This document shows, piece by piece, positions 2,962 through 32,749 of a stretch of 64,000 nt of DNA. The first letter of the stretch is position 1. Every line of letters starts with the position of its first letter. Where the stretch lies: the NCBI GenBank assembly GCA_018652265.1, contig JABICL010000039.1, forward strand, positions 7,287-71,286, given 5' to 3'. Both the position numbers and the translations under genes were made by a program. Origin of the DNA: Candidatus Peribacteria bacterium (GTDB taxonomy: Bacteria > Patescibacteriota > Gracilibacteria > Peribacterales > Peribacteraceae). The notes below the pieces were generated by a model, which saw nothing but the letters and a program-made list of their open reading frames with translations, searched no databases and was not told the origin of the DNA.

Positions 2962-4047
2962 ATGGCTACAACCACTTCAACTACCGCAGGCGATACAACA
3001 CTACAATTCAATCTACAGGACATGATTTCTGACCTATTTCTTGTTCTCACAGAGAAAGAGCAAGAAGTAATAAAGAGACGTTTTTCTATTACAGGAAGCT
3101 CTAGACAAACTCTCGAGAAGATAGGTAAGCATTTCAATGTTACTCGTGAGAGGATTAGACAGATAGAAAGTATTGCTCTTAATAAGCTTAGAAGAACTGT
3201 AGGAACTACGAAGTTGGATGACATAAACCAAATGGCCAAGGGAATCCTCCGAGCAAATGGCGGACTTATGCTCGAAGAAAGTCTAATTGCTAGCATTCTA
3301 AAAAGAATGGAGAATCCTACACCTACAGATGCATCTGTTTTGAAACTGTCTCTCTCGATAGACGGAGAGCTTTCTCATATAGGTCGTACTGGTTCTCTCA
3401 AGCCAAGCTGGAGATTCAATAGCCTTGCTCAAAAAGACATAAATGTTATTACAAATGGCGCAGTAAAAATACTAAAGAGAAGAGAAGAATGTATGAACGA
3501 AACAGAATTAGTCTCTGCTATACAGAACTTAGAATTATTCGGAGAGAAGAAGCCAAGTGATGAATTAATAGCATCAGCTCTTACTGTAGATAGTAGACTG
3601 AAAAATGTAGAGGCAGGATGGGGAATTACAGATTGGAGATTCGTTCGTCCAAGATCCATAAGAGACAAAGTAGAAATAATCCTGAAGAAAGAAGGCAGAC
3701 CACTTCACTTTGTAGAAATCGCTAATCGAATACGTGAAGCTAATTTTGATCACAAGAATGTAACAGTACAAGCTGTCCATAATGAATTGATCAGATACCC
3801 ACAGTTCGTTTTAGTTGGCCGTGGACTTTATGGTCTTAGCGAGTGGGGATTTGAACCTGGAACAGTTGCTGATGTAATAGAGAAGATTCTTGACGAAAAA
3901 GGTCCTCTCACAAAGAAAGAAATAATCGCAGAAGTTGCAAAACAGAGAAAAGTAAAAGTAGGAACCATTTCTCTGAATTTGCAGAAAATGCCTTACTTCG
4001 TTCGAGTTGGTCGTGCAGTTTACGATTTCGATAAGAGTAAGAAATAA
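2962..4047 (+). CDS. Sigma-70 region-4 domain fused to two HARE-HTH (RNAP delta-like) domains
   Basis: 361 aa. LTEKEQEVIKRRF...QTLEKIGKHFNVTRERIRQIESIALNKLRR matches sigma70_r4. GRPLHFVEIANRI...FVLVGRGLYGLSEWG and GPLTKKEIIAEV...FVRVGRAVYDF match HARE-HTH. No region 2 is recognisable. Confidence 0.6.
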   Translation: MATTTSTTAGDTTLQFNLQDMISDLFLVLTEKEQEVIKRRFSITGSSRQTLEKIGKHFNVTRERIRQIESIALNKLRRTVGTTKLDDINQMAKGILRANGGLMLEESLIASILKRMENPTPTDASVLKLSLSIDGELSHIGRTGSLKPSWRFNSLAQKDINVITNGAVKILKRREECMNETELVSAIQNLELFGEKKPSDELIASALTVDSRLKNVEAGWGITDWRFVRPRSIRDKVEIILKKEGRPLHFVEIANRIREANFDHKNVTVQAVHNELIRYPQFVLVGRGLYGLSEWGFEPGTVADVIEKILDEKGPLTKKEIIAEVAKQRKVKVGTISLNLQKMPYFVRVGRAVYDFDKSKK

Positions 4048-25450: not shown

Positions 25451-25492
25451 ACCACTTCGTCCCTCGGCTAGCTCGGGACTTCGCGGCATCAG
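25451..25492 (+). repeat. GC-rich repeat family D, copy 2
   Basis: ACCACTTCGTCCCTCGGCTAGCTCGGGACTTCGCGGCATCAG; compare 4681-4726. Confidence 0.75.
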
Positions 25493-26280: not shown

Positions 26281-26424
26281 AGTGGTTAGTGACTATGCTT
26301 CGACTCGCACTTCGACTCGTAGAACTTAAGCATCGCGACTTCGTCGCTCCGCTTCAAGTTCAACTCGCTCAGTACGGCTCAGCATGACATATTCATCACA
26401 ACTACCCACTACTCACTAACCACT
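26281..26424 (-). repeat. Family B repeat copy B2 (26295-26390) enclosed by a perfect 12-bp inverted repeat
   Basis: AGTGGTTAGTGA (26281-26292) and TCACTAACCACT (26413-26424) bracket the reverse-oriented B copy ATGCTTCGACTCGCACTTCG...GCTCAGCATGACAT. Confidence 0.85.
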
Positions 26425-26486: not shown

Positions 26487-28259
26487 ATGTGTGGAATCTT
26501 TGGTTATGTAGGAAATAGAAAGGATGCAGGACGCATCGTAGTTCGTGGCATAAAGAGCCTAGAATACAGAGGATACGATTCTTGGGGAGTAGCTAGAATG
26601 ATTGATGGAGATATTTTTATAGAAAAAAATGTAGGAAAGATTGGAGGAGTAAATCCAGAATCATTTTCTGAACTTAGCAGTATAGCGATCGCTCATACGC
26701 GTTGGGCAACACACGGTGGAGTAACAAAAGAAAATGCTCACCCTCATATTTCTTGTGATAAGAAAATTTCAGTAGTTCACAATGGAATCATAGAAAATTA
26801 CCAAGAGCTTAGAGAGGAGCTAAAAAACAAAGGTCATACATTCACATCCGAAACAGACACAGAAATCATATGTCATATGATCGCAGAGAATCTAAAAACC
26901 AGTAAGGATCTTCCAGAGGCAGTTAGAATTACATGTCAGAGATTTGAAGGTCGTTACGGATTTCTTATTATAAACACTGAAACAAATGAGCTAATAGCAG
27001 CTCGAACAGGATCTCCACTTATTGTAGGAAGAGGAGAAGATGAAACCTTCATAGCTTCAGATATTCCTGCATTCATGGAGCACACAAAAACTGTAAATTA
27101 CATAGACGATGGAGAAATGGTAATAACAGACGGAAAAGAAACTCGTTTCTATGAAATAAATTCAGGCAAAGAAATAGATAAAAGAAATGTAGAAATCACT
27201 CTGGATATAGAGGAAGCAAAGAAGGGTGAATACGAGCACTTCATGTTAAAAGAAATAATGGATCAGAAAGATACTATTGCTAGAGCAGTGAACCAAGACG
27301 AAGAACAGATTCAAACAATTGCAAATGCTATTCGCGATGCCCAAGGAACATTCTTATCTGCCTGCGGAACTGCCGGAAAGGTTTGTATGGCATCTGAGTA
27401 CTTCTTCTCTGTAGTTGCAGAGAAACATGTAAATTTCACTCCAGCATCTGAGTTTCCTATATACCATCATTTCTTGGTGCCAGAGAGTTTGCTTATTGTG
27501 GTCTCACAAAGTGGAGAAACTGCAGACGTACTAGAAGCTATGAAAGTCGCAAAGTCTAAGAGGGCAAAGGTTCTCGCAGTAGTAAACTCAGAAGGATCTA
27601 CGATAGATAGAGAAGCAGATTACACATTGCTTATAAATGCAGGCCCAGAACGAGCTGTAGCCTCCACAAAAGCTGCTACAGGACAAATGGCAGTTATGCT
27701 TCTGGTTGCTTATGCACTTGCAGATAAACTAAACGAGGGAAGGGCAGTGCTGCTAGAAACTGCTTCTATGATTAATGACATGTTGAATCCTAGATATATG
27801 GAACACGTATCTGGAATCGCGGAAAATATAAAAGAAGAAGAGAACGTATACATAATAGGAAAAAGTTGGAATTATCCTATGGCACTAGAAAGTGCTATAA
27901 AAATTCAAGAAGTAAGTTATGTTCATGCAGAAGGATTTGCAGGCGGAGAACTTAAACATGGTCCTATAGCTTTGATCCAAAAAGGAACTCCTTGTATTGC
28001 ACTGATCGGTAATGATGAAACCAAAATGGACACTCTAAGTAATACCATAGAACTAAAAGCCAGAGGTGCTCACATAATAGGAGTAGCACCAGAAAATAAT
28101 GAAGTTTTCGATGAATGGATAAAAGTACCAGATGCAGAAACTGCTCAGGCAATAGTAAACATAATTCCTATCCAAGTCCTCGCATATTATCTCGCAATTA
28201 AACGAGGTAAAGATCCGGATATGCCAAGGAATTTGGCGAAGAGTGTGACGGTTAAATAG
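26487..28259 (+). CDS. glmS: Glutamine--fructose-6-phosphate aminotransferase
   Basis: MCGIFGYVG Ntn start, two SIS domains, and the C-terminal LAKSVTVK. A TACAAT -10 box sits 6 nt before the ATG. Confidence 0.95.
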   Translation: MCGIFGYVGNRKDAGRIVVRGIKSLEYRGYDSWGVARMIDGDIFIEKNVGKIGGVNPESFSELSSIAIAHTRWATHGGVTKENAHPHISCDKKISVVHNGIIENYQELREELKNKGHTFTSETDTEIICHMIAENLKTSKDLPEAVRITCQRFEGRYGFLIINTETNELIAARTGSPLIVGRGEDETFIASDIPAFMEHTKTVNYIDDGEMVITDGKETRFYEINSGKEIDKRNVEITLDIEEAKKGEYEHFMLKEIMDQKDTIARAVNQDEEQIQTIANAIRDAQGTFLSACGTAGKVCMASEYFFSVVAEKHVNFTPASEFPIYHHFLVPESLLIVVSQSGETADVLEAMKVAKSKRAKVLAVVNSEGSTIDREADYTLLINAGPERAVASTKAATGQMAVMLLVAYALADKLNEGRAVLLETASMINDMLNPRYMEHVSGIAENIKEEENVYIIGKSWNYPMALESAIKIQEVSYVHAEGFAGGELKHGPIALIQKGTPCIALIGNDETKMDTLSNTIELKARGAHIIGVAPENNEVFDEWIKVPDAETAQAIVNIIPIQVLAYYLAIKRGKDPDMPRNLAKSVTVK

Positions 28260-28367
28260 GTATTTTAGGTACATTAGGTATCGTAGGTAATGTAGGCAGA
28301 ATTTAATTCGTCGTATTAAATTTGTACCTAAATTACTTAAAGTACCTAAGATACATAAAATACCTAA
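28257..28367. repeat. T1: ~110-bp palindrome built from 5 x TAGGTAnnn and 5 x TACCTAnnn units at a 9-bp period
   Basis: TAGG(T/C)A starts at 28257, 28266, 28275, 28284 and 28293. TAC(C/T/A)TA starts at 28325, 28334, 28343, 28352 and 28361. The arms are about 75-80% complementary. The first unit contains the glmS stop codon. Confidence 0.9.
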
Positions 28368-28423
28368 CACGAGCAGGTCGAACCAGTCTGCCTTTCGGCA
28401 GACCGGCTCTTCGCGAATCTCAC
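28364..28423 (-). CDS. Candidate mini-ORF 1 inside the 3' element (19 aa, MRFAKSRSAERQTGSTCSC)
   Basis: GGAGG is 6 nt upstream of a GTG start. The equivalent SD+start+short ORF is present in all three element copies. Coding status is unproven. Confidence 0.25.
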   Translation of the reverse strand: MRFAKSRSAERQTGSTCSC

Positions 28424-28478
28424 GTTTAGCCTCCTTCCTTTGGCTAAGGATTCACGACAGTGTTCACATGTGTTTCGG
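28366..28478 (-). repeat. STAS-unit 3' structured element, copy 1
   Basis: Minus strand: CACATGTG, CGTGAATC, [TTAGCC-loop with GGAGG-GGCTAA], GAGATTCGCG, CCGGTCTGCC-GAAA-GGCAGACTGG, TTCGACCTG. About 90% identical to copy 2. Confidence 0.85.
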
Positions 28479-28844
28479 CTAGAATTCCAGCAACGCCACT
28501 TCGCGATTTTCGTGGATATCGAAAGTAAGATATAGCTTTGTAGCCTTGAAGAGACCTGCGTAGACATCTTCAGAAATTCCGCAAAGTTTGAGATTCTTTG
28601 CTGAGCTTGTTACCCTCTCCAGCTTTTTTTGCAGGGTCATCAGCTTGCCAATAAACACACTGCTTGTTTGCTGAATCACAGAGAAATCGATCAACACTTT
28701 CCTTTTGCCATCCTTCTCAACTAGGGCAAATAGTCTTTCTCCAGCATGGAGAATGAGCGTCTCGTTCGTGAGCTGCTCTGCAGCAGGAGTGACAACTGTC
28801 ACACCATCCACATCTTCAACTTGCAATTCCGCTGTTTCTTTCAT
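28479..28844 (-). CDS. STAS-domain protein (anti-sigma-factor-antagonist-like), paralog 1
   Basis: 121 aa from MKETAELQVEDVDGVTVV. KVLIDFSVIQQTSSVFIGKL resembles the SpoIIAA DxS...S motif. SD GGAGTGGAG upstream. The longer ORF start at 28886 lies in the conserved leader. Confidence 0.7.
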   Translation of the reverse strand: MKETAELQVEDVDGVTVVTPAAEQLTNETLILHAGERLFALVEKDGKRKVLIDFSVIQQTSSVFIGKLMTLQKKLERVTSSAKNLKLCGISEDVYAGLFKATKLYLTFDIHENREVALLEF

Positions 28845-29054
28845 CGCTCCACTCCGTTTACAAGGATCAAAAATGTCCCCCGACACATGTTCACTACAAG
28901 TAGTAAGTCACTATGAAAGCCAAAAATCAATCAGAATCGGGGTAATTTTACACAGGTCGAACCAGCCTGCCTTTCGGCAGACCGGCTCCTTGTGAATCTC
29001 ACGTTTAGCCTCCTTTCTTTGGCTAAGGATTCACGGATTGTCACATGTGTTTTA
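28845..29054 (-). repeat. Conserved inter-STAS scaffold (leader of paralog 1 plus 3' element copy 2)
   Basis: The 3' element is at 28945-29054. The leader core GTGACTTACTACTTGTAGTGAACATGTG and TTGATTTTTGG are shared with 29418-29636. Confidence 0.85.
28931..29002 (-). CDS. Candidate mini-ORF 2 (23 aa, MRFTRSRSAERQAGSTCVKLPRF)
   Basis: GGAGG, then CTAAAC, then a GTG start. Same position as mini-ORF 1. Confidence 0.25.
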   Translation of the reverse strand: MRFTRSRSAERQAGSTCVKLPRF

Positions 29055-29417
29055 CTAGAAGTCGACGAGAGCGTCTTCACGATTACCATCAAAGACGTCG
29101 AAAAACTGTACAAGATTGGTCATTGTGAAGACTTCAAAAACATCTCGCTTCATTCCACAGAACCTCATTTTTCGTGGCTGACCCCGAACCCATTTCTTAC
29201 TGATATTCATCAACATACCAAGGGCAGGGGAACTAGGAAATTCCATATTGCAGAAATCAACCAGAACCTTATTAGCCCCTTCTTCAAACACCGCAGTGAG
29301 CACCGTCCTGACTGACCCGGTCTGTTCGGATCCAAGGAATTGTGGATCCATTATGGTCAATACGGAAACTCCTCCTACCACTTCAACATTGGGTTCAGTA
29401 CTTTGTGTTGGATCCAT
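29055..29417 (-). CDS. STAS-domain protein, paralog 2
   Basis: 120 aa from MDPTQSTEPNVEVVGGVSVLTI. KVLVDFCNMEFPSSPALGML motif. SD AAGGAGTG upstream. Confidence 0.65.
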   Translation of the reverse strand: MDPTQSTEPNVEVVGGVSVLTIMDPQFLGSEQTGSVRTVLTAVFEEGANKVLVDFCNMEFPSSPALGMLMNISKKWVRGQPRKMRFCGMKRDVFEVFTMTNLVQFFDVFDGNREDALVDF

Positions 29418-29636
29418 CTCTCTACACTCCTTTGAAGGAACGATTCGAATATTTTGCACACATGTGCACTATCAAATAGTAAGTCACTCTGAAAGGCAAA
29501 AATCAATCATTATCATGATAATTTTACACAGGTCGAACCGGCCTCCCTGTAACAGGAAGCCGGTTTTTCGTGAATCTCATATGCCACCTCCTTTCGGGTT
29601 GGTTGGGATTCACGGATGTTCACATGTGTTTCGGAG
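29418..29636 (-). repeat. Conserved inter-STAS scaffold (leader of paralog 2 plus 3' element copy 3)
   Basis: The 3' element is at 29524-29636, with the hairpins kept but their sequence changed: CCGGCTTCCTG-TTAC-AGGGAGGCCGG, and CCAACC..GGTGG replacing TTAGCC..GGCTAA. Confidence 0.85.
29524..29580 (-). CDS. Candidate mini-ORF 3 (18 aa, MRFTKNRLPVTGRPVRPV)
   Basis: GGAGG, then TGGCAT, then an ATG start. Only the first ~7 residues are shared with mini-ORFs 1 and 2. Confidence 0.25.
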   Translation of the reverse strand: MRFTKNRLPVTGRPVRPV

Positions 29637-29981
29637 CTAGAAGCCCTCGAGGGCTTCTTCGAGCGTGTCGAAGATGTCGAAGAGCCTGTTTAGCAGGCTG
29701 ATAGTAAAGACTTCAAGTGGCTGGCCAGAAATGCAACAAAATCTTAGTCTACTTTTTGCGTTTTTCGCCCTCTTATTCATTGTAGTGAACTTGCTAAGCG
29801 CTGCAGTATGCAGATACTTGACATTCGAAAAATCTAATATTATTTTCTTTCTTCCATCCTCATCAACGAGACCAAACATTTGATTTCCCATGATTTGAAT
29901 GTTGCCCTCGTCCATAATCTTTTCATCCACAAATTTCACGACAGTCACGCCACCAATTTCCTCGATTTCTATTCTTCGCAT
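29637..29981 (-). CDS. STAS-domain protein, paralog 3
   Basis: 114 aa from MRRIEIEEIGGVTVVKFV. KIILDFSNVKYLHTAALSKF motif. SD ACGGAGTGG upstream. Confidence 0.7.
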   Translation of the reverse strand: MRRIEIEEIGGVTVVKFVDEKIMDEGNIQIMGNQMFGLVDEDGRKKIILDFSNVKYLHTAALSKFTTMNKRAKNAKSRLRFCCISGQPLEVFTISLLNRLFDIFDTLEEALEGF

Positions 29982-30070
29982 TTCAACCACTCCGTTTTGA
30001 AAGGACAATTCGAATATTTCGCACACATGTGCACTACAAGTAGTAAGTCACTACTTGGCAAGTATTACAA
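29982..30070 (-). repeat. Conserved leader of STAS paralog 3
   Basis: AGTGACTTACTACTTGTAGTGCACATGTGTGCGAAATATTCGAAT...ACGGAGTGG is near-identical to the paralog 2 leader. Confidence 0.8.
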
Positions 30071-30115
30071 GAAATATCTTTGGATTCTTATTTGAAAACA
30101 TGCAAAGTATTATTA

Positions 30116-30218
30116 TAGGTATGGTAGGTATTGTACGTAATGTAGGTACAGACTTAATCCTACAAATTAAATGCTACCTACATTACCTACGATACCTACT
30201 GTACTTACAATACCTAAG
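30116..30218. repeat. T2: second 9-bp-periodic TAGGTA/TACCTA palindrome
   Basis: TA(G/C)GTA starts at 30116, 30125, 30134 and 30143. TAC(C/T)TA starts at 30175, 30184, 30193, 30202 and 30211. 30177-30198 is the exact reverse complement of 28275-28296 (22/22). It ends 2 nt before the PBP stop. Confidence 0.9.
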
Positions 30219-30220
30219 CC

Positions 30221-32749
30221 CTATTTCTCATCCGGAGGTATTCCGTAATAGTCAAACAACACCTTAGAAACCTCCTTAAATACCGGTGCAGCGGACTGGG
30301 AGCCATATTCCACAGTTCTAGGACGATCAAATTTTACTATCATTACAAATCTAGGCTTATCTACAGGAGCATATCCAGCAAAAGAGGTAATAGAAGATCC
30401 ACTTCCAGTGCTTTCATATTTACCACCAGGACCAGCTATCTGACTGGTGCCAGTTTTTCCAGCCATACGATATCCATCTACTTTTGCAGCACGAGCAAAT
30501 CCTTCATTCATACCCTTTGTAAGCATTGCAGTTACTGTTGCTGCAGCTTCTTCTGTAATTACTTGTTCCAAGGTCTTTGAATAAACTTCTTCTATAGTTC
30601 CATCCGAATCAATCCAACTATCTATTATTGTAGGCTTCACAAGCTTGCCTCCATTTGCAAGTACAGAGAAAGCAGTAACAATTTGAAGTGGAGTAGCAGA
30701 AATTCCCTGACCATAAGAAGCAGTAGCGAGCAGAGCATCACTCCATCTTCTCCAATCCAAAACATTACCTGGCTTTTCATCTTCAAGCTGAATTCCAGTT
30801 ATACGACCAAAACCAAATCTCTTTATGTAGTTTGCAAAAAGTTTCTTACCAAGTTTTCTAGAGACATGCGTCATACATGTATTTACAGAATATGAAAGAC
30901 AATCCGTCATAGTTACCTCATCGAAAACTCTATTTTCTGCATTGGCAATAATATATTCGTCTATCTCTACAGTACCTTCATCTAAGTACATATCATCTGG
31001 AGTTATCTCCCCCTGATCTATTGCTATAGACATTGTAATAGGCTTAAAAACAGATCCAGGCTCATATATTTCTTGGCTAATACGATTTATATAAGCACCC
31101 ACTCCTATGCGATTTTTATATCTAAGCCAGTGATAATCTCCATCATTTCCACGCTCTAGGAATAGTTCGAAACGATTATTTTCACCTGTATATAAGAAAT
31201 ATCTCTTCAAATCATCTATGTCATAGTACTTCTCTAAATCTAGTAGCTCTTCCTGAAGCTCTCGACTCAAATGAACACGCCCCTCAGGAGTTGCATCATT
31301 CAAATATCCTCTCATTACCAGATCATTAGTTTCTGGATCTGCTATCTCTACTACTATGCTTGGGATCAAATCATCTGGAATATCGTAAGGCTCTTTTTTA
31401 AAAACCAAACTATAATTATTTGCATCCACAAGTGGAGCATTTGCAGCAACTATTATTCTGCCCGTAGAAGGATCCATTACAATTACTTGTCCACTATCTG
31501 CTTCGAACTCATCTACAGCTGCAGAAAGAATATTTTCTACTTTCTTTTGCAAAAATCTATCTATAGTTAGGATTACGCTTCTTCCATCCAAAGCATGGAT
31601 TATACTTTGATCATCTGAAACTATTTGTCCTCCAAAAGGATCAGTAAGCGCACTTATACGACCTTCTTGACCACGTAGATCATGATCGAAAGTTCTCTCT
31701 ATTCCATTTTGCGGTTGCTGATTAATATTTAAAAATCCTGCAATCTGAGATGCTACAGTTCCATCTGGATATATTCTCCAATGTTCAGGAATAAGTGCTA
31801 TTCCACGCAATGGATCATAAATATTATTTGCCGTTTCTTTATCTCCTCTTTTTATAAGCTCCTTTCTCTGCTGCGCAGTACGTTCTATTGATTCTTTCTT
31901 AAGCGATTTTATCCTCTTGGAAAACTCTGGCTTTATCCTTCTCATTATAGGTACATATCTAAGCCTTCTTTTTACTAATCTCTCTCGTATAAATTCAGGT
32001 TCAAGTGCAAGTGATGGAGAAATAATTTTTGCAATTCTGTGACGTTCATACTGAGGAATATGAACCGGATTCGCATACACAAGTTTACTGTTTTCTGATG
32101 CATAAATACCTGGTATACCAAACTCTTGAATTTTTCTTACCTGAACTTTGTTTGCTCCATACAAAAGCGGAATAAAAGATACAAACTCTTCATTTATTCT
32201 TTTAAAAATATCATTTGAAAATTGACCTCTTATTGTTTCTATAGGAAGTATAATTCTATTATTTGATTCACCTTCATCAGATTCGTTTATCTGATTATTT
32301 ATTTCTTTTAGAGGATCAAAGGCTGACTCATAGTACTCGCGAAGTTCGCGTGGACAATCTTTGTCTCCCTCTCTACACAGATTGTCATATTCTGTTATAA
32401 GTAATTCTTCTGCAAGAAGTCTCGAAACTGTACTCTTGTCATCCGTCACAAACGGATCTACATATAAAAGATCGAGAGTTGTATTTGTAGCCAAGATATT
32501 CAATTCATTTGTTTTGCTATTTCTACTAAGAATTTCACCTCTTTTAGCAGGAAGAACAATACCTCCGAAATGCTGTGCGCGAGCTATTTCCTCATATTCT
32601 GCTCCACGTATGATTTGTAGTTCTATAAGCCTTGCTACTATCACCAGAAGTATCACAAGCAAGATTCCATGAACTATCTCTATTCTACGCGAAAACATGC
32701 GCTTTCTATGCGTATCACTCACCTGGGAAGTAGTGCGATATCTCGCCAT
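30221..32749 (-). CDS. Class B penicillin-binding protein (PBP2/FtsI-type transpeptidase)
   Basis: Start set at MARYRTT, before the TM helix. SxxK (SVFK), SxN (SVN) and KTG (KTGTS) motifs. Long insertion-rich N-terminal module. Confidence 0.85.
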   Translation of the reverse strand: MARYRTTSQVSDTHRKRMFSRRIEIVHGILLVILLVIVARLIELQIIRGAEYEEIARAQHFGGIVLPAKRGEILSRNSKTNELNILATNTTLDLLYVDPFVTDDKSTVSRLLAEELLITEYDNLCREGDKDCPRELREYYESAFDPLKEINNQINESDEGESNNRIILPIETIRGQFSNDIFKRINEEFVSFIPLLYGANKVQVRKIQEFGIPGIYASENSKLVYANPVHIPQYERHRIAKIISPSLALEPEFIRERLVKRRLRYVPIMRRIKPEFSKRIKSLKKESIERTAQQRKELIKRGDKETANNIYDPLRGIALIPEHWRIYPDGTVASQIAGFLNINQQPQNGIERTFDHDLRGQEGRISALTDPFGGQIVSDDQSIIHALDGRSVILTIDRFLQKKVENILSAAVDEFEADSGQVIVMDPSTGRIIVAANAPLVDANNYSLVFKKEPYDIPDDLIPSIVVEIADPETNDLVMRGYLNDATPEGRVHLSRELQEELLDLEKYYDIDDLKRYFLYTGENNRFELFLERGNDGDYHWLRYKNRIGVGAYINRISQEIYEPGSVFKPITMSIAIDQGEITPDDMYLDEGTVEIDEYIIANAENRVFDEVTMTDCLSYSVNTCMTHVSRKLGKKLFANYIKRFGFGRITGIQLEDEKPGNVLDWRRWSDALLATASYGQGISATPLQIVTAFSVLANGGKLVKPTIIDSWIDSDGTIEEVYSKTLEQVITEEAAATVTAMLTKGMNEGFARAAKVDGYRMAGKTGTSQIAGPGGKYESTGSGSSITSFAGYAPVDKPRFVMIVKFDRPRTVEYGSQSAAPVFKEVSKVLFDYYGIPPDEK

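Follow-up and report, generated by a model that had tools for sequence, protein, structure and literature searches.

Intrinsic terminators that lack a U-tract ('I-shaped' terminators) have been described in Actinobacteria and other phyla, and in enterobacteria some small RNAs, such as those of the CpxQ and SroC type, derive from the 3' untranslated region (UTR) of an mRNA. Bacteria of the Candidate Phyla Radiation (CPR) have compact genomes, and to our knowledge conserved non-coding elements are almost undescribed in them. Repetitive extragenic palindromes and their mosaics (REP/BIME elements) are 3' stabilisers of mRNA and are associated with RAYT (Y1) transposases (PMC2817692, PMC8266576). 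Here we studied a stretch of 64,000 nucleotides from an uncultured marine Candidatus Peribacteria bacterium (assembly GCA_018652265.1, contig JABICL010000039.1, positions 7,287 to 71,286; hereafter the window), which carries three tandem STAS genes on its minus strand, named g3, g2 and g1 in the order of transcription. Each gene is followed by a copy of one non-coding element, which we call the 3' element. We found that the element is a real, selected and STAS-specific non-coding module without a described family. It is most likely a lineage-specific cis-acting module of the STAS transcription unit, acting as RNA in the 3' UTR of each STAS mRNA.

An initial annotation, made from the letters of the window, had placed three copies of the element on the minus strand, and all of its strings and coordinates were correct (Table 1). 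The order it described, from the stop codon through a basal stem, an apical hairpin and a second hairpin (hairpin 2) to a tail, holds in all three copies. In full, the stop codon is followed by 4-8 nt, CACATGTG, the basal stem CGTGAATC/GA(G)ATTC(A/G)C(G/A), the apical hairpin, hairpin 2 and TTCGACCTG. It had also tied the element to the 3' side of every STAS gene, which is true even for g1, where the array ends. It also holds in a sister species (L025; L033-L038 are the same locus), whose only STAS gene is followed by a fourth copy. These four are the distinct copies we know, each 4-8 nt past a STAS stop codon. The sister species has 95% GlmS identity and carries the same 5' block and 3' element at the same chromosomal junction, with another family of flanking repeats.

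Table 1. Positions of the 3' element, its parts and the surrounding features in the window (position 1 is the first letter of the window; units are numbered as their genes)
Feature	Position	Strand	Remarks
3' element, copy 1 (after g1)	28366..28478	-	covariance model R1, 123 bits
3' element, copy 2 (after g2)	28945..29054	-	R1, 125.7 bits
3' element, copy 3 (after g3)	29524..29636	-	R1, 119.5 bits; differing apical and hairpin-2 sequences
Domain 1, copy 1	28412..28456	-	basal stem CGTGAATC/GAGATTCGCG, apical TTAGCC-N10-GGCTAA, AAGGAGG in loop; -14.5 kcal/mol
Domain 1, copy 2	28991..29035	-	
Domain 1, copy 3	29569..29614	-	apical CCA(A)CC...GGTGG, weak, one-base shift
Hairpin 2, copy 1	28380..28409	-	13 pairs, GAAA loop, 2 G.U pairs
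Hairpin 2, copy 2	28959..28988	-	13 pairs, GAAA loop, 3 G.U pairs
Hairpin 2, copy 3	29536..29565	-	different sequence; 12 pairs in scan, 6-nt loop GUUACA
CACATGTG right after g1 stop codon	28465..28472	.	equivalents 29042-29049 (g2) and 29621-29628 (g3)
CACATGTG in g3 promoter/5' end region	30024..30031	.	equivalent before g2: 29459-29466
Conserved 5' block, unit 3	30020..30081	-	promoter-like; 3/62 differences from L025 vs about 32% neutral
Micro-ORF, copy 1	28364..28423	-	AGGAGG, 6 nt, GTG; MRFAKSRSAERQTGSTCSC
Micro-ORF, copy 2	28931..29002	-	MRFTRSRSAERQAGSTCVKLPRF
Micro-ORF, copy 3	29524..29580	-	MRFTKNRLPVTGRPVRPV
STAS gene g3	29637..29981	-	114 aa; Pfam STAS, E = 7.5e-13
STAS gene g2	29055..29417	-	120 aa; Pfam STAS, E = 1.2e-6
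STAS gene g1	28479..28844	-	121 aa; no Pfam match, diverged paralog by alignment; covered by RNA contigs
TAGGTA hairpin, glmS side	28257..28366	.	long hairpin of phased TAGGTA repeats, closes the array
TAGGTA hairpin, PBP side	30111..30216	.	homologous hairpin, closes the array

Copies 1, 2 and 3 fold very much better than their shuffled sequences (z = -4.8, -6.2 and -4.6, respectively; 0/200 shuffles as good). The predicted fold has four parts, namely an outer helix, which pairs ACACA with UGUGU in the window copies only, the basal stem with its apical hairpin (together domain 1), the long hairpin 2 and the short conserved tail. In RNA letters the basal stem reads CGUGAAUC/GA(G)AUUCACG, and the loop of the apical hairpin that it carries is always (G/A)AAGGAGG (GAAAGGAGG invariant in 4/4 copies) with a GUG or AUG 6 nt further on. 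Hairpin 2 contains 12-13 pairs, of which 7-8 are G-C, and is capped by GAAA in three of the four copies, including that of L025. Its full length of 13 pairs (GAG-CCGG...CTGG-TTC) makes the 'TTC' of the conserved tail a part of the stem. Its three window copies are the strongest uninterrupted G+C-rich hairpins of the window, and because of their G.U pairs, the hairpin scan saw them on the minus strand only.

The evidence for selection comes from the comparison of the two species. At four-fold degenerate sites, the window and the sister species differ at 32% in glmS and 37% in the gene of the penicillin-binding protein (PBP), the two genes that enclose the array; the following P values were computed at 32% neutral divergence. 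Copy 3 and L025 differ at 4/66 non-coding bases between the stop codon and GAGAUUCA (P about 4e-7), copy 1 and L025 at 0/32 bases of hairpin 2 and the tail (P about 4e-6; the identical 32-nt stretch is CCGG...GGTTCGACCT, 28375-28406), and unit 3 and L025 at 3/62 bases of the 5' block (P about 2e-7). Ordinary intergenic regions of the two species are alignable over short promoter motifs only. Every pair of STAS coding sequences has reached saturation at its four-fold sites (13/17 differ between the positional 'orthologs' g3 and L025). Along unit 3 and L025, identity is about 95% up to ...GTGCACATGTGTGCG, about 50% over the 5' UTR and the coding sequence, and about 95% again from about 25 nt before the stop codon. 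By this comparison of sequences, the element is under strong purifying selection, and its near-identity in the sister species indicates that it is functional. Recent gene conversion is not the explanation, because the flanks of orthologs are more alike than those of paralogs. Within the array, the spaces between the coding sequences are about 80-90% identical across units, whereas the proteins are only 25-35% identical (trimmed family alignment); thus, the 3' element is part of a conserved non-coding frame that encloses each gene. The element of L025 is a mosaic with domain 1 of the copy-3 type and hairpin 2 of the copy-1 type, which is what unequal crossing-over in a longer ancestral array would leave.

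The claim that the hairpins are kept by compensatory change was borne out only partly: hairpin 2 retains its pairing, and the apical hairpin does not do so column by column. Among the 13 pairs of hairpin 2 in the four sequences, 6 are invariant, 4 show a one-sided change, 2 a two-sided change and 1, a terminal pair, is broken in copy 3. Over its two sequence types, 98% of the cells are paired and no internal pair is broken; there are two strict double changes (U-A to C-G and G-C to C-G) and five one-sided changes of the G.U type. If they were free to vary, the chance that all seven variable pairs stay pairable would be about 0.375^7 = 0.001 by our own rough estimate. The two sequence types account for all this variation, which in essence amounts to a single replacement event. 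The apical hairpin proposed for copy 3, CCA(A)CC...GGTGG, forms only with a bulge and after a register shift of 1 nt, and a different fold has the minimum energy. If the register is kept fixed, 1/6 columns of the apical helix are paired in copy 3 and L025, and the helix is 58% paired overall. The basal stem is invariant, two wobble changes aside.

Hairpin 2 is also strand-biased. Its energy on the coding strand versus the opposite strand is -24.5 vs -15.3 kcal/mol in copy 1, -23.9 vs -10.2 kcal/mol in copy 2, -21.7 vs -16.3 kcal/mol in copy 3 and -24.5 vs -19.6 kcal/mol in L025, an advantage of 5-14 kcal/mol for the coding strand. Within stems there are seven one-sided changes, and on the coding strand each of them results in G.U. 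This bias, the seven G.U changes and the GAAA tetraloops in 3/4 copies together favour a fold in the sense transcript (or in one DNA strand). The initial annotation had read the element as a conserved structured RNA or a DNA site; conservation, structure, selection, the tie to STAS genes and the strand bias of hairpin 2 agree with that, while the basal/apical domain has no strand bias.

The lack of a U-run after the hairpins, where the tail reads GACCUG(U/C)..., had been noted correctly and taken as an argument against a plain intrinsic terminator. The G+C-rich hairpin of a canonical intrinsic terminator is present and the U-run is not, and a scan of positions 28000-30400 gave no terminator-like site. 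In the genome, however, canonical terminators are not enriched (13, 13 and 16 found vs 11-12 expected), so the missing U-run is no argument against termination here. As for translation, TAnAAT lies within 6-10 nt upstream of many start codons, which suggests that the mRNAs are mostly leaderless. The STAS genes have GGAGUG 7-9 nt before AUG, which, like the perfect AAGGAGG of the element, is foreign to the style of the genome.

The STAS genes are transcribed: metatranscriptome contigs from three sets (depth 2-11) cover the coding sequences of g1, g3 and the L025 STAS gene and one 5' UTR. One RNA contig (run X25), a single contig of low depth, ends at 30022, 2 nt downstream of the CACATGTG on the 5' side of g3. 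This end fits a transcription start at the palindrome, with the conserved promoter block upstream.

The window contains five copies of the palindrome CACATGTG where 0.62 would be expected, all of them inside the STAS array; before g1 there is a degenerate form, AACATGTG (28884-28891). Because it is found in each promoter region as well as after the stop codons, a DNA-level role for part of the module is possible. Shorter blocks homologous to the 5' block of unit 3 are located at about 29455-29488 and 28881-28912. The 5' block also contains a small palindrome, ACTAC-TT-GTAGT, at 30033-30044 in unit 3 and at 28893-28904 in unit 1; it is ACTAT-TTG-ATAGT in unit 2 (29468-29480) and ACTAC-AT-GTAGT in L025 (about 1153-1164). 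Its symmetry is kept by a two-sided change, and it overlaps a possible -10 box (TGTAGT/GATAGT).

The start codon after GAAAGGAGG opens a tiny open reading frame (ORF) that runs through hairpin 2 and has 18-23 codons in the window and 35 in the sister species. Its peptide is unconserved past MRF (Met-Arg-Phe). We rejected this micro-ORF as a gene for a conserved peptide, since changes fall at every codon position and the frame in copy 3 is offset by 2 nt. We also dropped the idea of an antisense ORF over the element, as its frames are inconsistent among copies. A UCCUU(U)C motif lies in the 5' UTRs just upstream of the STAS Shine-Dalgarno sequences (30001-30012, 29431-29440 and 28861-28868) and is complementary to 5-7 nt of the GAAAGGA of the apical loop; pairing between 5' and 3' ends or between units is conceivable, and the match may be due to chance.

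The four STAS proteins (g1-g3 and L025) share 25-44% identity with one another and 37-65% with Planctomycete STAS proteins. Each of the four (window 28479-29981; L025 1216-1581) was observed to be nearer to a Planctomycete STAS protein than to the other three. The sequences point to a lateral origin of the STAS genes and to coding sequences that later either diverged to an extreme degree or were replaced inside conserved flanks. The G+C content of the array is 43%, compared with 37-39% in its surroundings, and the locus was found again, unaltered, in marine metagenome contigs. By its GlmS relatives, the window belongs to Candidatus Peregrinibacteria/Peribacteria, a CPR lineage. The Planctomycete relatives have a gene for a HATPase_c_2 anti-sigma kinase 107-192 nt downstream; among the 39 ORFs of the window there is no kinase, phosphatase, integrase, transposase or invertase. 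An ORF with Sigma70 region 4 and HARE-HTH domains (2962-4044) is the sole sigma-related protein seen in the window. A DNA-binding STAS repressor like CapS, which is described as paired with a kinase (PMC13373217), was dropped as a model, since the STAS proteins here are single-domain proteins of 114-121 aa and the window has no kinase.

The glmS/PBP junction was compared with that of relatives (loci L039 5333-5938, L040 3270-3935, L042-L047 and L050-L052) and is empty in most of them. In four groups of relatives with 77-78% GlmS identity, the glmS and PBP genes abut or are 47 nt apart. In one relative lineage the glmS/PBP junction contains a Y1 (IS200-like/RAYT-like) transposase with inverted G+C hairpins, GGCGCGGGTCTCCGACCCGCGC, on either side. 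As the junction is empty in the former and occupied by the transposase in the latter, the STAS array is an insertion at a repeatedly used junction. The 3' end of glmS serves as an insertion hot spot in this clade, reminiscent of attTn7. Two TAGGTA hairpins of about 110 nt each, about 75% alike and with repeats phased every 9-10 nt, bracket the array exactly and reach the stop codons of glmS and PBP; in the DNA runs, further contigs of equal depth match them in part, which makes them members of a dispersed family of the REP or MITE kind. A second repeat, likewise structured and dispersed, ATGTCATGCTGAGCCGTACTGAGC...GTCGAAGCAT, separates a hypothetical gene from glmS in the window (26295-26393) and is found on either side of the STAS unit in the sister species (L025 about 955-1083 and 1749-1848). 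A third, ACTTCGTCCCTCG..CTCGGGAC, is found at about 25454-25484 in the window and about 1699-1729 in L025.

The distribution of the element is narrow. No further copy was found in the window, or with covariance model R1 in 178 kb of related and Planctomycete loci. A one-pattern search of GTDB species genomes gave only a chance match, which falls within a coding sequence on a Saccharibacteria contig, three IMG/VR pattern scans returned nothing but chance matches, and blastn against plasmids and phages gave no match. One pattern in JGI metagenomes returned seven loci, of which six were chance matches and one was real (L025). No new allele appeared in 20 contigs of the two species. At Rfam gathering thresholds the window yields tRNAs only, and up to E = 10 nothing usable was added. 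The best sub-threshold match on the element is PtaRNA1, on copy 1 only (23.7 bits, E = 0.078, gathering score 47), and the best match in the region is given by microRNA precursor models on the flanking TAGGTA hairpins (mir-4536, 32.7 bits vs 76). Some other candidates were discarded: Planctomycete STAS-kinase loci as carriers of the element (excluded by eye and with R1 in seven spacers), a tRNA-like T-arm around GGTTCGA and a hammerhead-like core (no complementary stem and no Rfam match), and a mechanism like that of diversity-generating retroelements (the differences span the whole coding sequence, and the window has no reverse transcriptase).

How the element resembles the systems introduced above, and how it departs from them, can now be stated. 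It shares with I-shaped terminators a strong G+C-rich hairpin soon after the stop codon, a position at the end of the unit and a genome without an excess of canonical terminators, but it differs in its invariant primary sequence, in a second stem-loop with a Shine-Dalgarno sequence and in its restriction to one gene family; termination would be its putative function here. Like REP/BIME elements, it is an extragenic palindromic sequence downstream of and between the genes of an array, with a Y1 transposase at the same junction in a relative. REPs, however, are dispersed in tens to hundreds of copies, whereas the element is found only after STAS genes (three in the window and one in the sister species); at this locus, the TAGGTA hairpins and 'repeat X', on the flanks of the island, are the truly REP-like repeats. 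With small RNAs of the CpxQ/SroC type it has in common a conserved sequence from the stop codon to a terminal hairpin. It is from another phylum, one with no known chaperone, and any processed species from it would be putative.

The reading that we tentatively prefer, and hold at a little below an even chance, is that of a 3' UTR module made of RNA. Hairpin 2 would set or protect the 3' end of the transcript, as a terminator without U-tract and/or as a block to 3' exonucleases, and would in this way insulate the units of the tandem array. Domain 1, with its invariant basal stem of 8 pairs and variable apical stem, would display the GAAAGGAGG loop 6 nt before AUG/GUG and may be a docking site for the ribosome or for an RNA-binding regulator that recognises GGA in the loop. 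A ribosome that initiated at this site would read on across hairpin 2, and translation might thus be coupled to the formation of the 3' end. The CACATGTG after the stop codons and at the promoters would probably be a separate DNA operator, or a site of 5'-3' pairing, of the same unit.

Several observations weigh against this proposal. The invariant primary sequence (CGTGAATCC, GAAAGGAGG, TGAGATTC and GGTTCGACCT) is needless for a plain terminator or stabiliser. L025 lacks the outer helix ACACA/UGUGU, the basal stem of domain 1 never covaries, and neither the basal nor the apical part of that domain prefers a strand; in three cases, a changed terminal pair is C.A on the coding strand. The covariation is not significant, as 61/500 shuffles reach the observed score (four sequences, two pairs), and the replacement of a whole hairpin could come from a template-switch mutation without selection for RNA folding. 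Shine-Dalgarno sequences precede 3/38 long ORFs (200 aa or more) against a background of 12%, and AGGAGG occurs 44 times, mostly not before genes; since the genome hardly uses this signal, docking of a ribosome is uncertain. In the three metatranscriptome sets no RNA contig reaches any copy of the element, at a depth (2-11) too low to weigh. One contig (run X20), again single and of low depth, ends precisely on the final base of the g1 stop codon (28479), with adapter sequence beyond.

Alternatively, the module may act as DNA. The 5' block and the 3' element would then be a constant frame enclosing a replaceable STAS coding sequence, and the hairpins and palindromes would serve either as recombination or transposition sites folding on a single strand, as attC sites and IS200/IS605 ends do, or as paired looping operators. 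The sharp transitions between about 95% identity in the flanks and about 50% in the coding sequence of unit 3 and L025, the nearly identical flanks around coding sequences with saturated silent sites, the mosaic element of L025, the CACATGTG bracketing every gene, the symmetric change of the ACTAC..GTAGT palindrome in unit 2 and the history of the glmS/PBP junction, empty in four groups of relatives and with a Y1 transposase and inverted hairpins in another, all agree with such a frame; single-stranded DNA sites also tolerate G.T mispairs on one strand. On the other hand, the 39 ORFs of the window include no integrase, transposase or invertase, and in the DNA contigs of four runs we saw neither an inversion nor any alternative junction at CACATGTG or element sites. 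The latter result, with no strand-changing joints, also led us to drop a gene flip between inverted CACATGTG sites. The element is not dispersed in the genome, no attC cores (RYYYAAC/GTTRRRY) are visible at its ends, and it has two hairpins instead of a long imperfect one. Between units, the intergenic region is homologous throughout, without sharp cassette boundaries, which fits tandem duplication and unequal crossing-over. We therefore regard a DNA frame as possible and rather unlikely. Its integron-like form, in which STAS coding sequences of a CPR bacterium would be swapped, lost and gained, and the one-strand-folding hairpins and CACATGTG would be sites for a recombinase encoded elsewhere, seems highly improbable. 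Integron attC sites are like the element in being structured 3' sites, one per gene of an array, in which structure is kept over sequence and one strand folds, with coding sequences between them that are unrelated or have diverged. Unlike them, the element has no RYYYAAC (the sole GTTRRRY is the GTTAGGT in the flank of copy 1), consists of two hairpins in a branched fold rather than one bulged hairpin, and is strand-biased in hairpin 2 only; there is no Phage_integrase or other recombinase among the window ORFs, the 5' leaders are conserved and all genes belong to one family. Ends of the IS200/IS605 type, or of palindrome-associated transposable elements, have similar subterminal hairpins and go with a Y1 transposase in the genome; here the 5' and 3' blocks have just CACATGTG in common and differ in their hairpins, and Y1_Tnp is found at the junction of the relative and not in the window.

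The remaining explanations keep to the transcript or deny a function. A ribosome on the micro-ORF of 18-35 codons might melt hairpin 2 and so control read-through to the next STAS unit, as a translational attenuator. This would account for the invariance of GAAAGGAGG, 6 nt and GUG/AUG in all four copies, where the only change of the start codon, GTG to ATG, exchanges two valid starts, and for a micro-ORF that spans hairpin 2 in every copy; as in regulated starts, the 3' strand of the basal stem is where the start codon lies, and the apical stem takes up part of the Shine-Dalgarno sequence; moreover, two of the three window copies lie before another STAS gene. In leader-peptide attenuators of the ermC, cat and trp type, too, a Shine-Dalgarno sequence and a start codon open a short unconserved ORF that extends into a strong hairpin. 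They do not, however, lie downstream of a gene with nothing after it, as 2/4 copies do (copy 1 and that of L025), and no anti-terminator helix is seen in the predicted folds. The peptide is unconserved after MRF with a 2-nt frame shift in copy 3, Shine-Dalgarno sequences are rare in the host genome and each downstream gene has its own promoter-like block, which makes attenuation clearly unlikely. A small RNA of about 85-110 nt, either independent or derived from the 3' UTR, whose single-stranded motifs CACAUGUGA and GAAAGGAGG would act on other RNAs or titrate a protein, would explain the layout common to many such RNAs, with a stem-loop on the 5' side and then a strong hairpin at the terminus, and the conserved primary sequence of loop and linker; the PtaRNA1 match to copy 1 (23.7 bits) is a weak hint in the same direction. 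That match is far below its threshold and is missing from the other copies, no RNA contig (depth 2-11) lies over the element, and the promoter scan placed no site within the coding sequence upstream of it. As three differing, STAS-tied copies per genome would also be unusual for an RNA acting on other molecules, we give this idea little credence. Finally, the element might be a functionless relic, for example of the STAS-kinase spacer of a Planctomycete donor, including the start of the kinase, homogenised by gene conversion. The closest STAS relatives are indeed Planctomycete genes with a HATPase_c_2 kinase 107-192 nt behind them, and gene conversion is common in tandem repeats, but the cross-species conservation is far above that of neutral sites and orthologous copies are more alike than paralogous ones. 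In seven Planctomycete STAS-kinase spacers R1 gave no match, and the N-termini of the kinases (M..SEEFEVTIPSD) are unlike MRF; because the Planctomycete loci have no element, the kinase-start version was dropped, and a relic of any kind is extremely unlikely.

At this locus the usual pattern of conservation is inverted, with about 110-220 non-coding bases near-constant around proteins that are 25-44% identical and saturated at silent sites. The occurrence in two sister species, in four copies, limits both the generality of the finding and what can be proven from sequence alone. The inverted conservation, in which constant flanks surround hypervariable STAS genes, is more worth following than the hairpins themselves. 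If the element forms an RNA 3' end or a docking site, it would provide a first handle on post-transcriptional control in CPR bacteria; if it is instead a DNA frame that exchanges coding sequences, it would represent a new way to diversify a signalling protein.

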